Positions 34,949 through 38,102 of a stretch of DNA of 64,000 nt are shown piece by piece. The stretch lies in contig JADJCA010000011.1 in assembly GCA_016703425.1 (NCBI GenBank), forward strand, positions 250,050-314,049, written 5' to 3'. Source of the stretch: Myxococcales bacterium. GTDB taxonomy: Bacteria; Myxococcota_A; Polyangia; Polyangiales; Polyangiaceae. Numbering within the stretch: the stretch's first letter is position 1; each line of letters starts with the position of its first letter. The notes beneath the pieces were generated by a model that worked only from the letters and a program-made list of their open reading frames with translations, had not been told where the DNA came from and made no database searches. Both the position numbers and the translations under genes were made by a program.

Positions 34949-37755
34949 CCACCGCCCCGACCCCCGCGCCGGCGCCGGAACCGAAGCGCGCGGGCTTCGA
35001 TCGCTTGAAGGATCTCCTCCCGGCGCTCGAACAGCTCGGCGTCGGCAAGAAGGCCGGCATTCCGATCATCCAGCAGACGGCCAGCACCGACTGCGGCGCC
35101 GCCTGCCTCGCCATGGTGCTCGGTTATTTCGGACGTCACGTGCCGCTGGAGGAGATTCGTAGCGGCATGGCCGTCGGGCGCGACGGCGTCAGCGCCCGCG
35201 CCATTCTCGAGTCTTCGGCGCGCTACGACTTGCGTGGCCGCGGCGTGCGCATCGAGGTGTCGGACTTCGCGCAGCTCGACCGCGCGTCGATCCTCCACTG
35301 GAACTTCTCGCACTTCGTCGTCTTCGACAAAGTCGACGAGCGCGGCATTCACATCGTCGATCCGGCGCTTGGCAAGCGCGTCGTGACGTCGGAAGAGGCT
35401 TCGCGCGCCTTCACCGGCGTGGCGTTGCTCTTCGAGAAGACCGACGTCTTCCAGCGCGTCGGCCAGCGCAACGTTTCGATGATGAAGCGTTACCGCGACA
35501 TGATGAGCGGCAACGGCTCCGACGACGTCAAGCGCGTCGTCATCACGTCCGTCGTGCTCCAGTCGCTCGCGCTCACGCTGCCGCTCATCCACGGCCGCCT
35601 CGTCGACCGCGTTTTGCCGCGCAACGACAAGCACCTGATGTTCGTCCTCGTGATGGCCTTCTTCACGGCGAACATCTTCTATTTCCTCACGGCGATGACG
35701 CGAAGCCACATCTTCACGCACGTCCGCACGAAGTTCGACGCGAAGCTCACCTTGGGCTTCGTCGAACACATGCTCAAGCTGCCCTACGGGTTCTTCGAGC
35801 GCCGCCAGCCGGCCGACTTGCAGATGCGCATCACGAGCGTCGCGCAGATCCGCGAGTCGCTCACGGGCGCTGTCCTCTCGGGCATGGTCGACGGCACGCT
35901 CGTCATCGGCCACCTCATCTTCCTCCTCCTCATGAGCGTCAAGATGGCGCTCGTGGCGTCGGCCGTCGTGGCGGTGCAGGCGACGGTCTACATCGTTCTT
36001 CGCAACAAGATGCTCGAGCTCTCGGCCGGCACCATTGCCAAGCAGACGGAGTCGGCCCACGCGCTCCAAGAGCTCCTCAACGGCATGGAGTGCCTCAAGG
36101 CGAGCGGCATTGAGCACGTCGCGGCTCGCCGCTGGGCCGGCGAATACATTGACCTCTTGAACATCAACCTCCGCCGCGGCGGCGTCAGCAACCTGTCCGA
36201 CGCGCTCCTCGGCACGATGCGCGTCACGGGCCCGACGCTCCTCCTGTTGGTCGGCGTTCACGAAGTCACGACGGGCGCCCTGAGCCTCGGCGCGATGCTC
36301 TCGGCCAACGCCTTCGCCGTGGGCTTCATCCAGCCGGTCATGAACCTCGTCGGCACGCTGAACAACCTTCAGATGGTGAAGGCCCAGTTCTCGCGCATCG
36401 ACGACGTCTTGGAGACCCCGCCGGAGCAAGACGGCGCGGCCCGCATGGCGCCGAAGCTCAAGGGCGAGATCATCCTCGATCGCGTCAGCTTCAAGTACGT
36501 GGCGAACCAGCCGCCGGTCGTCAAGCAGGTCTCGGTGCACATCAAGCCCGGCGAGTGCATCGCCATCGTCGGCCGCTCGGGCTCCGGCAAGACGACGCTC
36601 GGACGCCTCCTCTTGGGTCTCTATCCGCCCAGCGAGGGCGGCGTTCGCTACGACGGCATTCCCATTCAGCAGCTCGATCTGCGCACCATTCGCCGTCAAC
36701 TCGGCGTCGTCATGCAGCGGCCGCACATCTTCGGCACCTCGATTCGGGCCAACATCGCCCTCGCCGATCCGTCAATCCCGCTCGACAAGGTGCAGACGGC
36801 GGCGGGCCGCGCCTGCATCGACAAAGACATCGCGCGCATGCCGCTCGGCTTCGACACGCCCGTCGTGGCCGGCGGCGCTTCGCTCTCGGGCGGTCAAAGA
36901 CAACGCCTCGCGCTCGCGCGCGCGCTCGTCGCCGATCCGGTCATTCTCTTCCTCGACGAAGCCACGAGCGCCCTCGACGCGACCACGGAGCAAGAGGTGC
37001 AAGCGCAGCTCGACAAGCTCACATGCACGCGGGTCGTCATCGCTCACCGCCTCAGCACCATCAAGAACGCCGACCGCATCCTCGTGATGGAAGACGGCGT
37101 CTTGGTCGAGATGGGCAAGCACGACGAGCTCGTCCAGAAGCGCGGCGCCTACGCGCGCCTCGTCGCGGCGCAAATGGGCGAGCAGGCTCTCAAGGGTCCT
37201 GCTCCGGCGGGGCAGCCGGCGCAAGGCTCGCTGCCGCCGGGGGCGCCGCAGGGCGCGATGGCCCCGCAAGGCGCGCCTAAGGGCTCGCAAGCGCCAGGGC
37301 CGCAAGGCGCGCGTCCGTCGATGCCGGCGCAAGCGGGCGCGCCGCCCAACCCGCAACAGGCCGCGGCGCAGCAGCAGGCCCAACAGCAAGCCCAGCAGCA
37401 GGCAGCCGCCGCTCAAGCGGCGCTCGCCCAGATGAACCCGGCGCAGCGGCAGCTCGTGGGGCAAGCGCAAGCGCACATGCAGCAGCTCGAAGCGCAGCTC
37501 GTGGCGCAGATGCAAGCGCAGCTTCAGACGGTTCCGCCGGAGCAGCAGGCGCAGGCACGAGCGCAGTTCCAGCAACAGGCGCAGGCGCAGCTTCGCGCAG
37601 CGGCGCAGCAGGTGCACGGCCAGCTTCAGCAGGCCCTCGCGCAAGCCGCCGACCCGTCGCCTCAGCAGCAGCAGCAGCAGCAGCAGCAGCAGCAGCAAAG
37701 GGAGCGCAAGAGCGCGCGCTCGCCCAGGCTCAAATGGAAGCGCAGCAGCGCATGA
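34945..37755 (+). CDS. Peptidase-containing ABC transporter (C39 peptidase - TMD - NBD; CvaB/SunT-like PCAT) with long Q/A/P-rich C-terminal tail
   Basis: ATGA overlap with upstream adaptor. C39 domain QQTASTDCGAACLAMVLGYFG plus downstream His. Six TM helices. Walker A GRSGSGKTTL, signature LSGGQRQRLALARAL, Walker B ILFLDEATSALD. About 200 aa of PQGA/QQAQ low-complexity tail ends in a 12-Gln run. Confidence 0.8.
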   Translation: MTTAPTPAPAPEPKRAGFDRLKDLLPALEQLGVGKKAGIPIIQQTASTDCGAACLAMVLGYFGRHVPLEEIRSGMAVGRDGVSARAILESSARYDLRGRGVRIEVSDFAQLDRASILHWNFSHFVVFDKVDERGIHIVDPALGKRVVTSEEASRAFTGVALLFEKTDVFQRVGQRNVSMMKRYRDMMSGNGSDDVKRVVITSVVLQSLALTLPLIHGRLVDRVLPRNDKHLMFVLVMAFFTANIFYFLTAMTRSHIFTHVRTKFDAKLTLGFVEHMLKLPYGFFERRQPADLQMRITSVAQIRESLTGAVLSGMVDGTLVIGHLIFLLLMSVKMALVASAVVAVQATVYIVLRNKMLELSAGTIAKQTESAHALQELLNGMECLKASGIEHVAARRWAGEYIDLLNINLRRGGVSNLSDALLGTMRVTGPTLLLLVGVHEVTTGALSLGAMLSANAFAVGFIQPVMNLVGTLNNLQMVKAQFSRIDDVLETPPEQDGAARMAPKLKGEIILDRVSFKYVANQPPVVKQVSVHIKPGECIAIVGRSGSGKTTLGRLLLGLYPPSEGGVRYDGIPIQQLDLRTIRRQLGVVMQRPHIFGTSIRANIALADPSIPLDKVQTAAGRACIDKDIARMPLGFDTPVVAGGASLSGGQRQRLALARALVADPVILFLDEATSALDATTEQEVQAQLDKLTCTRVVIAHRLSTIKNADRILVMEDGVLVEMGKHDELVQKRGAYARLVAAQMGEQALKGPAPAGQPAQGSLPPGAPQGAMAPQGAPKGSQAPGPQGARPSMPAQAGAPPNPQQAAAQQQAQQQAQQQAAAAQAALAQMNPAQRQLVGQAQAHMQQLEAQLVAQMQAQLQTVPPEQQAQARAQFQQQAQAQLRAAAQQVHGQLQQALAQAADPSPQQQQQQQQQQQQRERKSARSPRLKWKRSSA
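37663..37698. repeat. (CAG)11CAA trinucleotide microsatellite (poly-Gln) inside the transporter tail
   Basis: Perfect tandem CAG x11 followed by CAA, read directly from the sequence. Confidence 0.9.
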
Positions 37756-38102
37756 GCAGCCGGCCGCCGACGCCGAGTGCGCCGCCGCAGGGCGCGATGC
37801 CCGGTGCTGTCATCGGCTCGCGGCCGCCGCCGTCGCTTCACTTTGGCGACGAGCACGCGACCCTCGCGCGCGGGCCCAAGCCGCCGTTGCCGCCGCCCCG
37901 CGGCAGCACGCCGCCGGGCCAAAGCCGCGCGCCCACCGGAGCGCAGACGACGGCGGGCCGCGACGTGCGCCCACCGGCGCTCCGCGCCATCGGCGGCGGT
38001 GCCACGCCCGATGGCGGAGGGGCGCAGTTTGAGGCGGCCGACGATGCGCCGACGCTCAGCGAGAAACAGTTCGAGAACCTCTGGAGGTCGTCGGCCGGAT
38101 GA
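37734..38102 (+). CDS. Pro-rich 122-aa ORF; either a separate small protein or the frameshifted continuation of the PCAT tail
   Basis: It shares the PQGAM motif with the PCAT tail. The reading frame upstream of its ATG encodes AQERALAQAQMEAQQ (same style as the tail). Its stop overlaps the next gene start (ATGA). Confidence 0.3.
   Translation: MEAQQRMSSRPPTPSAPPQGAMPGAVIGSRPPPSLHFGDEHATLARGPKPPLPPPRGSTPPGQSRAPTGAQTTAGRDVRPPALRAIGGGATPDGGGAQFEAADDAPTLSEKQFENLWRSSAG

Follow-up and report, generated by a model that had tools for sequence, protein, structure and literature searches.

Among the solved PCATs, all of which end shortly after the NBD, the closest to the transporter described here are PCAT1 of Clostridium (Hungateiclostridium) thermocellum (PDB 4RY2, 7T54) and ComA of Streptococcus pneumoniae (8HF7). 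Both combine a C39 peptidase domain, a 6-TM exporter domain and an NBD in 717–730 aa, terminate about 10 residues past the NBD, and belong to systems in which the gene for a cargo with a double-glycine leader adjoins the transporter gene. HlyB/HlyD/TolC type I secretion represents a second point of reference, in which an ABC protein, an adaptor and a TolC-like component provide tripartite export across the Gram-negative envelope; HlyB carries a degenerate C39-like domain and its substrate a C-terminal secretion signal. In the heterodimeric ABC exporters TmrAB and TM287/288, short C-terminal zipper helices follow directly after the NBD.

A PCAT secretion operon with two adaptor genes

The window, by which we mean the whole 64-kb stretch of DNA that was analysed, contains a secretion operon of a Polyangia-type myxobacterium with the order cargo, TolC-like OEP, adaptor 1, PCAT and adaptor 2. 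Its features are as follows.

30977–32171, + strand: cargo gene, Gly-rich, ~397 aa, with double-glycine leader MRFSARRAIERSCSLDDLDDVQGG followed by C
32511–33971, + strand: TolC-like outer-membrane factor (OEP); Pfam PF02321, E = 1.6e-48
33968–34948, + strand: HlyD-type periplasmic adaptor 1; Pfam HlyD_3, HlyD_D23, Biotin_lipoyl_2
34945–37755, + strand: PCAT ORF as called, 936 aa
34945–37698, + strand: PCAT, first reading frame (aa 1–918 of the intact protein), with C39, 6-TM exporter domain, NBD and the initial part of the tail
37698–38102, + strand: PCAT, second reading frame (aa 919–1052 of the intact protein), holding the 122-aa ORF at 37734–38102
38083–38087, + strand: Shine-Dalgarno sequence GGAGG for adaptor 2, inside the final PCAT codons (TGG AGG, Trp-Arg)
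38099–39055, + strand: HlyD/RND-type periplasmic adaptor 2, 318 aa; Pfam HlyD_D23, HlyD_3; TIGR01730

The transporter has the domains expected of a PCAT. Pfam places Peptidase_C39 at aa 40–166 (PF03412, E = 3.2e-32), ABC_membrane at 199–465 (PF00664) and ABC_tran at 526–675 (PF00005). The C39 domain contains the motifs TDCGAAC and HWNFSHF, and its Cys46, His119 and Asp135 (numbered as in P0001, the closest distinct ortholog) are invariant across 56 homologs. GRSGSGKT, LSGGQRQR, ILFLDEATSALD and AHRLST are all present in the translation, and PCAT1 and ComA, which share the C39/6-TM/NBD architecture, align with query residues 41–740 at E ~1e-94 and ~1e-79. With its catalytic residues, TMD and NBD motifs and a cargo with a double-glycine leader, the protein departs from the solved PCATs in one respect, since the intact form extends ~307 residues further at the C-terminus. 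This extension is a variant feature and no ground for exclusion from the PCATs. The window PCAT also differs from PCAT1 and ComA in belonging to a diderm, where two adaptor genes and a TolC-like OEP accompany it. In its tripartite organization the system is like that of HlyB, but the C39 Cys/His/Asp residues are conserved, the GG leader lies at the N-terminus of the cargo and there are two adaptors. The top NCBIfam model is TIGR03796 (NHLP-family bacteriocin export, peptidase/permease/ATPase subunit; residues 39–740). The score, 591.9 bits, is below the curated cut-off of 853.3, so the PCAT is not a member of this equivalog; moreover the cargo, in contrast to those of NHLP exporters, is a 397-aa Gly-rich protein and no NHLP or Nif11-type peptide. 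The cargo leader has Leu at −7, Val at −4 and GG at −2/−1, with cleavage predicted before the Cys, and an NCBIfam search of the cargo gave no match.

The stop codon of adaptor 1 overlaps the PCAT start, and the TGA that ends the second PCAT frame (38100–38102) overlaps the ATG of adaptor 2 at 38099 in the sequence ATGA. The same 4-nt overlap occurs in the loci of P0001, L053 and L054, and equivalents of the Shine-Dalgarno sequence (GGGAGG or CGGAGA) lie in the final codons of the L054 and L053 orthologs. The position of the OEP gene likewise matches in ortholog loci. The final PCAT codons also hold the ribosome-binding site through which translation of adaptor 2 is coupled to that of the PCAT.

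One PCAT gene interrupted beside a CAG repeat

The called PCAT frame is disrupted immediately after a microsatellite, at the following sites.

37663–37695, + strand: perfect (CAG)11 microsatellite encoding polyGln, followed by CAA to give 12 Gln
37696–37702, + strand: missing-base site CAAAGGG; in-frame alleles have CAAAAGGG or CAAAGGGG
37699–37755, + strand: out-of-frame read-through of 18 codons (RERKSARSPRLKWKRSSA) and TGA, giving a basic end

The (CAG)11 tract is the sole trinucleotide repeat of six or more copies in the window, the runner-up being (CGA)5. In the window and other contigs the copy number is 6, 8, 9, 11, 12 or 17, and the tract is therefore length-polymorphic in the species; the variation between samples is what the earlier note had proposed to look for. 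Downstream of the repeat, alignment counts six A/G bases in the window (A3G3) and seven in the in-frame alleles (A4G3 or A3G4). Since CAAAGGG stands where the relatives have CAAAAGGG or CAAAGGGG, the window is one base short. Between CCT and GAGCGC, in-frame alleles have 25, 34 or 43 nt, each of these being 1 mod 3, and the window has 39 nt. Because of the missing base, the called protein runs on for 18 out-of-frame residues and stops, and the remaining 134 codons are left as a separate ORF of 122 aa. The run, with three identical bases, is shorter than expected for a classic homopolymer error, which counts against an error.

The earlier note had described a 12-Gln run encoded by a CAG microsatellite, an 18-residue basic and junk-like end, and another frame in the style of the tail, and had proposed that a 1-nt indel at caaaggg splits a protein of ~1050 aa. 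All of these points are borne out. After the repeat the alternative frame gives KGAQERALAQAQMEAQQRMSS...PPQGAMPGA, remaining open as far as 38102, PQGAM is found both in the tail and in the 122-aa ORF, and the overlap of the 122-aa ORF stop with the adaptor start, which had also been pointed out, is that given above. The 18-codon stretch is not real protein sequence: it holds two AGG codons, a codon used 1.9 times per 1000 in the genome.

Contigs of the same species from eight samples other than that of the window (L043, L044, L045, L046, L047, L048, L049 and L052; 94–99.5% identical to the window) are free of the lesion. All eight, which are short-read contigs, read across the repeat in one frame with 6–12 CAG copies. 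Complete ORFs of 1052 aa (L043) and 1055 aa (L044, L045) were recovered, each ending in the ATGA overlap with the adaptor. Sequence statistics within the window agree with these alleles. GC3 switches frame at ~37700 and reaches 0.82–0.93 in the second frame, and the codon log-odds over 37699–37755 are 0.62 in the new frame versus 0.21 in the old. Population SNPs in related contigs follow the same pattern, 30/31 of those up to 37611 falling at third codon positions of frame 1 and 10/13 of those at 37730–38098 at third positions of the second frame; the SNP at 37730 is synonymous only in the second frame.

More distant relatives are also consistent with one gene. P0001 is a protein of 1023 aa whose core is 86% identical to that of the window PCAT. 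As BLASTP with composition correction aligned only the initial part of the tail to P0001, we used Smith-Waterman alignment with a shuffle control, and found the P0001 C-terminus to be homologous to the 122-aa ORF (score 159, z = 11, reached by 0/500 shuffles). The P0001 locus is syntenic with the window, and those of P0005 and P0007 are arranged likewise. When the lengths of PCAT orthologs were compared, as the earlier note had recommended, none had a stop at the window's position, and no independently conserved small Pro-rich gene was found. With the 134-aa C-terminal part as query, the matches were only split ORFs of the same species and fragments, and no small-gene family appeared; a Pfam search of the 122-aa ORF and scans of metagenome contigs with an exact 29-mer and with the 134-aa part gave no match. 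The exact 936-, 944-, 1052- and 1055-aa proteins were absent from the protein collection searched, and a scan of genome contigs with the PCAT yielded distant ABC proteins only, among the matches listed. The pattern QQQQQQQQ had at least 600 candidates in genome contigs, and a rough GC3 scan along the window, aimed at other frameshifts, was dominated by noise. As judged from these comparisons, 34945–38102 is a single PCAT gene of ~1052 aa in this species. The annotation should show one gene with a frameshift in this assembly and drop the 116/122-aa 'hypothetical protein'.

Origin of the frameshift

We consider it likely that this one gene of ~1052 aa has been split by a single missing base through a consensus or polishing error. 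Annotation of a 936-aa PCAT and a separate Pro-rich protein of 116–122 aa, as called, is extremely improbable. The small ORF does have an ATG (at 37734 or 37752) and an open frame, and it was called in two MAG annotations. However, it has no homolog as a gene of its own outside the broken assemblies of the species, its sequence forms the PCAT C-terminus in the intact alleles as well as in P0001, 37734 is not preceded by a Shine-Dalgarno sequence and 37752 only by a weak one (GGAAG), and the 936-aa form would have to end in 18 residues with atypical codons. We therefore rejected a separate small gene on the basis of the intact same-species ORFs, the lack of small-gene homologs and the homology to the P0001 C-terminus. 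It is also very unlikely that the cell makes use of the frame change, whether by programmed −1 frameshifting, transcriptional slippage or a phase-variable switch of the C-terminal module. The shift adjoins a hypervariable microsatellite and two assemblies are out of frame here, but the region 37600–37755 contains no in-register X_XXY_YYZ heptamer and its homopolymers are 3 nt at most. The repeat unit is 3 nt, and changes in repeat length consequently never alter the frame. All eight short-read alleles, with 6–12 copies, are in frame, and P0001, P0005 and P0007 encode the protein in one frame. The two out-of-frame alleles, which come from long-contig MAGs and differ in how they are broken, may be either real OFF alleles or errors. 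Programmed −1 frameshifting was accordingly dismissed for want of a slippery heptamer and of a two-frame layout conserved in relatives, and phase variation because the CAG unit is divisible by 3 and the flanking runs are only A3–4 and G3–4.

Real mutations, a PCAT deletion together with an extra T in the cargo gene, would mean either that the operon is becoming a pseudogene or that the PCAT works without its C-terminal module; we regard this as unlikely. The cargo gene is split in the window by an extra T at ~31601 (TT to TTT), a single-T indel relative to L042, a MAG contig of 455 kb that is 99.65% identical to the window. The intact cargo is 397 aa in L042 and 394 aa in L044, and the extra T is private to the window. 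Between the window and L042 there are three indels in 21 kb, two of which are the PCAT and cargo lesions; two frameshifts share a 7-kb segment of one operon and the remaining 14 kb of the comparison is free of them, a pattern that also fits gene decay. The truncated product keeps all catalytic domains. Moreover, the PCAT of L042 is disrupted at the same place, the only other broken allele. It is, however, broken differently, with (CAG)17 CAAAG CAAAAGGG; as the two broken alleles differ, they were not inherited from a common ancestor. The L042 cargo is intact, as is the PCAT in L046 (same sub-lineage, 99.5% identical) and in the seven other contigs. Both window lesions lie in sequence that is repeated or of low complexity, the kind in which consensus calling fails, and downstream of the shift there is no further damage, the protein being identical to that of the intact alleles. 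Of the two causes that the earlier note had put forward, repeat-driven sequencing errors are hence favoured, whereas decay of the whole system is less so, given that the lesions are private and the L042 cargo is intact.

The lesion is thus most likely an error and not a real mutation. The base would have been lost in the consensus or polishing of a long-read metagenome assembly, at a site made error-prone by a population-variable microsatellite (6–17 CAG copies) and short homopolymers. We infer a long-read origin of the window source and of GCA_964269505.1 from their contigs of 455–496 kb. MBK6694857.1, from a 496-kb MAG contig, is a deposited 116-aa call identical to the small ORF and probably belongs to a Nanopore study. 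Frameshift-split genes in long-read metagenome assemblies arise in a similar way, a 1-nt indel by a homopolymer or repeat leaving two overlapping ORFs, and Nanopore assemblies are known to retain indels at homopolymers (PMC9262707). As in those cases, same-species short-read assemblies are intact; unlike them, the homopolymers in the window are only 3–4 nt, and it is probably the neighbouring CAG tract, with its polymorphic length, that makes the consensus difficult. The extra T in the cargo is probably an error of the same type, and the gene at 30977–32171 needs indel correction as well. A population-variable microsatellite can thus leave frameshifts in long-read MAGs despite polishing, and same-species short-read contigs offer a quick means of detecting them. 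The polyGln run of 7–18 residues among wild populations is a bacterial case of in-frame CAG instability.

The C-terminal tail

Past the end of the NBD (~aa 745), the PCAT as called has 191 residues (~24% A, 23–42% Q and 21% P) with weak PQGA/QQAQ-type repeats, in agreement with the tail of ~200 residues noted earlier. The following regions were distinguished.

37180–37350, + strand: Pro/Gly/Ala/Gln-rich linker that immediately follows the NBD and is predicted to be disordered
37351–37647, + strand: Gln/Ala-rich helical region, including a predicted hairpin with helices of ~31 and ~37 residues and the joint TVPPEQ
37974–38099, + strand: conserved C-terminal module, PALRAIGGG ... DDAPTL ... FENLWRSSAG

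Of the closest homologs, 52 have tails of 55–290 aa, while more distant Myxococcaceae-type homologs have only 5–25 aa. The tail is therefore a real feature common to the exporter's closest relatives. The earlier note had called a tail of this kind unusual in a bacterial transporter, which is true in comparison with the solved PCATs but not within the exporter's own clade, where tails are the rule. A literature search on PCAT tails in myxobacteria found no description, the results being unrelated RiPP papers.

In AF2 models of the window tail the linker is coil (pLDDT 53–60); the equivalent residues 744–776 of P0001 are modelled with a pLDDT of 40–47. The single-sequence model of the window tail places helices at 61–86, 90–120 and 123–159 (pLDDT 85–91), and the P0001 model, made with an MSA, at 782–817 and 822–862 (pLDDT 81–96). 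When the tail model was compared with PDB structures by Foldseek, no hit reached E ≤ 0.001 and only generic helical hairpins were returned. The intact tail, which follows the NBD and is therefore cytoplasmic, would consist of a disordered linker of ~60 aa, the Gln/Ala helical hairpin region, polyGln, a disordered Pro-rich linker of ~90 aa and the C-terminal motif. The predicted hairpin could hold the NBDs of the homodimer together like a zipper. Like the zipper helices of TmrAB and TM287/288, it is a helical NBD C-terminal appendage that may contact the partner NBD; unlike them, it is preceded by the ~60-aa disordered linker and is much longer.

The blocks of the C-terminal module recur at the C-termini of tail-bearing homologs. 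A bipartite motif, matched with a regular expression composed after inspection of the data, occurs in 21/52 tails against 1.4 ± 1.2 in shuffled tails; pairwise similarity between the 122-aa ORF and tails other than that of P0001 was not significant. The terminal helix of P0001 is predicted with a pLDDT of ~71. The most plausible role of the motif would be docking, either to a different part of the transporter or to a partner. A Polyangia-type PCAT clade thus emerges with long, fast-evolving cytoplasmic tails, a predicted hairpin and a short C-terminal motif, found in no solved PCAT; current understanding is not overturned by these findings.

The motif follows the pattern hydrophobic-x-x-(A/I/V)-(A/V/I)-G-G/A-G and then an acidic stretch with PT, as in PALRAIGGG...DDAPTL. 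It resembles the cargo leader L-D-D-V-Q-G-G in its GG, in the Leu at −7 and in the hydrophobic residue at −4. This raises the speculative and very improbable idea that the motif is a built-in pseudo-substrate that sits in the C39 or substrate site of its own transporter, where it would either form an autoinhibitory plug or be self-cleaved to a peptide of ~33 residues, with the hairpin zipping the NBD dimer. Since many homologs have only A-A-G at this position and the motif is left undocked in the AF2 model (pLDDT below 50), the resemblance to the leader may be due to chance in an Ala/Gly-rich tail. For comparison of leader and tail motif, no GG-leader cargos were evident beside the L053 and L054 orthologs. 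If it exists, a pseudo-substrate of this kind would regulate a PCAT in cis by a mechanism not described before.

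Operon organization and the PCAT reading frame

The peptidase-containing ABC transporter (PCAT), in which the C39 catalytic residues are conserved, operates with a GG-leader cargo, two HlyD-type adaptors and one TolC-like outer-membrane factor (OEP) in one operon.

Features of the operon in the window
30977–32171, Gly-rich cargo, double-glycine leader ...SLDDLDDVQGG/C
32511–33971, TolC-like OEP
33968–34948, HlyD-type adaptor (adaptor 1)
34945–37755, + strand, PCAT ORF, 936 aa as called, with Peptidase_C39 (aa 40–166), ABC_membrane (aa 199–465) and ABC_tran (aa 526–675)
37663–37695, perfect (CAG)11, the sole trinucleotide tract of such size in the 64 kb
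37734–38102, 122-aa ORF between PCAT and the second adaptor
38099–39055, second adaptor (adaptor 2)

The called PCAT extends beyond its ATPase domain (NBD, to ~aa 745) by a 191-residue stretch enriched in A, Q, P and G. After the repeat the PCAT frame reads RERKSARSPRLKWKRSSA and stops, and an alternative frame reads KGAQERALAQAQMEAQQRMSS... and stays open until 38102, where its TGA overlaps the ATG of adaptor 2. ORF and sequence inspection thus confirmed every detail of the tail, repeat, two frames and ATGA overlap described in the earlier note. GC3 is 0.8–0.95 in the PCAT frame up to ~37700; from ~37720 on, the 122-aa ORF's frame has 0.82–0.93. Scored with a codon-usage table derived from six genes nearby, the 19 codons 3' of the repeat averaged 0.62 in the new frame versus 0.21 in the old, compared with 0.50–0.56 for real coding sequence here and 0.11 and −0.11 for wrong-frame controls. 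In the old frame these include two AGG codons (AGG frequency 1.9 per 1000). Among same-species contigs, SNPs fall at PCAT-frame third positions in the PCAT core (22/22) and in the tail up to 37611 (8/9), and, between 37730 and 38098, at those of the other frame (10/13). This pattern indicates that purifying selection in the wild tracks one protein, whose frame jumps at the repeat in window coordinates.

Two minus-strand ORFs, 36772–37698 (308 aa, poly-Leu start) and 31592–32167 (191 aa, Pro-rich), mirror the repeat regions; we rejected them as genes, since GC3 gives them no coding support and high G+C together with low complexity explains their presence. Downstream of adaptor 2, all same-species contigs carry genes for a Ser/Thr protein kinase (454 aa, 39092–40456) and a PEGA/TPR protein (332 aa), together spanning 39092–41467. 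Neither occurs at the locus of P0001, an ortholog, so both probably lie outside the secretion system.

Alleles of the same species

Using the adaptor protein as a search handle, we recovered 11 contigs from other samples with 94–99.65% identity to the window. In the three complete short-read contigs the PCAT is one continuous ORF, 1052 aa long in L043 and 1055 aa in L044 and L045, that ends at the ATGA overlap, and five partial contigs (L046, L047, L048, L049 and L052) also keep one frame across the repeat.

Alleles between CCT and GAGCGC
Window: (CAG)11 CAAAGG, broken
L046: (CAG)6 CAAAAGG, intact
L052: (CAG)8 CAAAAGG, intact
L043: (CAG)9 CAAAAGG, intact
L044, L045, L047, L048: (CAG)12 CAAAGGG, intact
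L042: (CAG)17 CAAAG CAAAAGG, broken

The in-frame reading after the repeat is CAAAAGGG or CAAAGGGG, where the window has CAAAGGG. One base of the A/G run is therefore missing from the window, at the exact site where the earlier note had proposed a 1-nt indel, this run being one base longer in the in-frame alleles. As an A/G substitution at 37699, just 3' of the repeat (AAAAGGG versus AAAGGGG), gives Lys or Arg by strain, the missing base could be A or G. The CAG copy number, suggested previously as a point to check, is polymorphic between contigs (6–17 copies). Strains also differ by an in-frame 6-nt CGCCGG indel (Pro-Ala) at 37764, within the tail's Pro-rich stretch.

Apart from the window, just one source has a broken allele: L042, taken from CAXWNY010000014.1 (455 kb) of the MAG GCA_964269505.1 and 99.65% identical to the window. 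Its lesion is different: at 9540–9610 of L042, (CAG)17 CAAAG precedes CAAAAGGG, which looks like a garbled repeat unit and divides the gene into calls of 944 and 122 aa. Comparison of 21 kb of the window with L042 shows just three indels, namely the repeat region, an in-frame 3 nt at 40380 and one T at 31601. The second, a CGC difference between strains, lies inside the Ser/Thr kinase gene. The third accounts for the cargo frameshift reported earlier: window positions 31595–31605 read GCCTTTCGC and the L042 equivalent reads GCCTTCGC, and the extra T divides the Gly-rich cargo into ORFs 30836–31669 and 31596–32171. The cargo is whole in L042 (397 aa) and L044 (394 aa).

Orthologs and the 122-aa ORF

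A homolog search with the reconstructed 1052-aa protein returned P0001, from a JGI metagenome, as the closest distinct homolog (1023 aa, core 86% identical). The C-terminal 110 residues of P0001 can be aligned to the 122-aa ORF (Smith–Waterman score 159, z = 11; 0/500 composition-preserving shuffles reach this score), with ...VARGPRPPPAPP...PALRVIGGG...DDDDPTLNPNEMDQLWRSR in P0001 corresponding to ...LARGPKPPLPPP...PALRAIGGG...ADDAPTLSEKQFENLWRSSAG in the ORF. Gene order at the P0001 locus is as in the window, with a 4-nt overlap between the PCAT stop and adaptor 2, and the loci of the orthologs P0007 and P0005 show the same order and overlap. Translation of adaptor 2 is coupled to the true PCAT stop.

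No independent small-gene family was found with a 134-aa C-terminal query, which matched only same-species split calls and fragments: P0121; MBK6694857.1 (116 aa, 'MAG: Myxococcales bacterium', 496-kb contig); an edge fragment that is actually in frame; and a 655-bp contig. This short ENA contig carries P0122, a 132-aa call in which the last 35 PCAT residues follow the N-terminus of an unrelated membrane protein, and is probably chimeric. The single-protein reading, which the earlier note had set against a separate small Pro-rich gene family, held in this search.

Origin of the split

The eight intact same-species contigs and the orthologs, all in one frame, support the interpretation of a split gene; apart from its clade-specific, so far undescribed C-terminal extension, the PCAT behind it is ordinary. 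The split itself most likely arose as an artefact of assembly, at a CAG microsatellite of polymorphic length. The two broken alleles differ and are each confined to a single long-contig MAG; the gene is whole in eight short-read contigs, among them L046 of the same sub-lineage; both window lesions sit in low-complexity or internally repeated sequence; and consensus and polishing are hard at a length-polymorphic microsatellite. Indels near homopolymers are a known residual error of Nanopore assemblies (PMC9262707), and the pipeline probably behind MBK6694857.1, built for activated-sludge MAGs, ran Canu, Racon, medaka and one Illumina Racon round (PMC8012365), both of which we count towards an artefact.

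That both frameshifts struck the same operon, and that homopolymer errors are less expected at short 3-nt runs, would fit a real, strain-specific lesion, which we nevertheless consider rather improbable. Programmed frameshifting or phase variation at the repeat is unlikely: a slippery heptamer in register is absent, the repeat has a 3-nt unit, and a single frame is used by all relatives.

Elsewhere in the window (2708–5619), a crude GC3 scan placed the + strand segments 2708–3718 and 3703–5619 in different frames with an overlap of ~16 nt, which may reflect two normally overlapping genes or a further indel.

The C-terminal extension

Solved PCATs (PCAT1, 4RY2, 730 aa; ComA, 8HF7, 717 aa) match residues 41–740 only. 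Of the closest homologs, 52 have tails of 55–290 aa, and more distant, Myxococcaceae-type homologs stop 5–25 residues beyond the NBD. Low-complexity regions are more abundant in myxobacteria than in any other bacteria (PMC6821194), which makes a tail of this kind less surprising here than it looks. The tails are hypervariable, yet many share short closing blocks: (A/V)(A/V/I)G(G/A)G after hydrophobic residues and, ~8–20 residues further on, an acidic stretch with (A/P)PT, followed by a basic end. A regular expression for the first two of these, composed after viewing the data, matched 21/52 real tails versus 1.4 ± 1.2 (maximum 8) shuffled ones.

AlphaFold2, run on P0001 with 55 homologs, gave a confident core, predicted disorder at 744–776, a helical hairpin (782–817 and 822–862, pLDDT 81–96), a disordered Pro-rich region (870–1005, pLDDT 31–38) and a short terminal helix (pLDDT about 71). 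The window tail folded alone gave the same hairpin flanking TVPPEQ (pLDDT 85–91), with the polyGln just past it. The hairpin had no significant structural match in the PDB. The tail would lie in the cytoplasm. There, the hairpins of the two PCAT subunits in the homodimer could pair with each other; for the C-terminal motif, docking onto the transporter or a partner is probable. It is very doubtful that this motif imitates a double-glycine leader and serves as a pseudo-substrate, as many homologs have only A-A-G at the site and AlphaFold2 gives the motif no placement.

The GGAGG ribosome-binding site of adaptor 2 (38083–38087) lies inside the final PCAT codons, CTC TGG AGG TCG TCG GCC GGA TGA (window 38080–38102), and orthologs have GGGAGG or CGGAGA at the equivalent place. 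Since the site falls within TGG AGG, a constraint on the nucleotides explains at least part of the basic PCAT end, and the 'conserved' Trp-Arg and basic C-terminal end may reflect constraint at this level, not a protein motif. The otherwise rare AGG codon is used in these final codons.

In tail-bearing orthologs the PCAT gene has an adaptor gene to either side, and its stop overlaps the downstream one by 4 nt. At the locus of the tail-less homolog P0096 (5024–9202 of L055, which is from Myxococcaceae bacterium GXIMD 01537, CP120527.1) both adaptor genes lie upstream of PCAT and none downstream.
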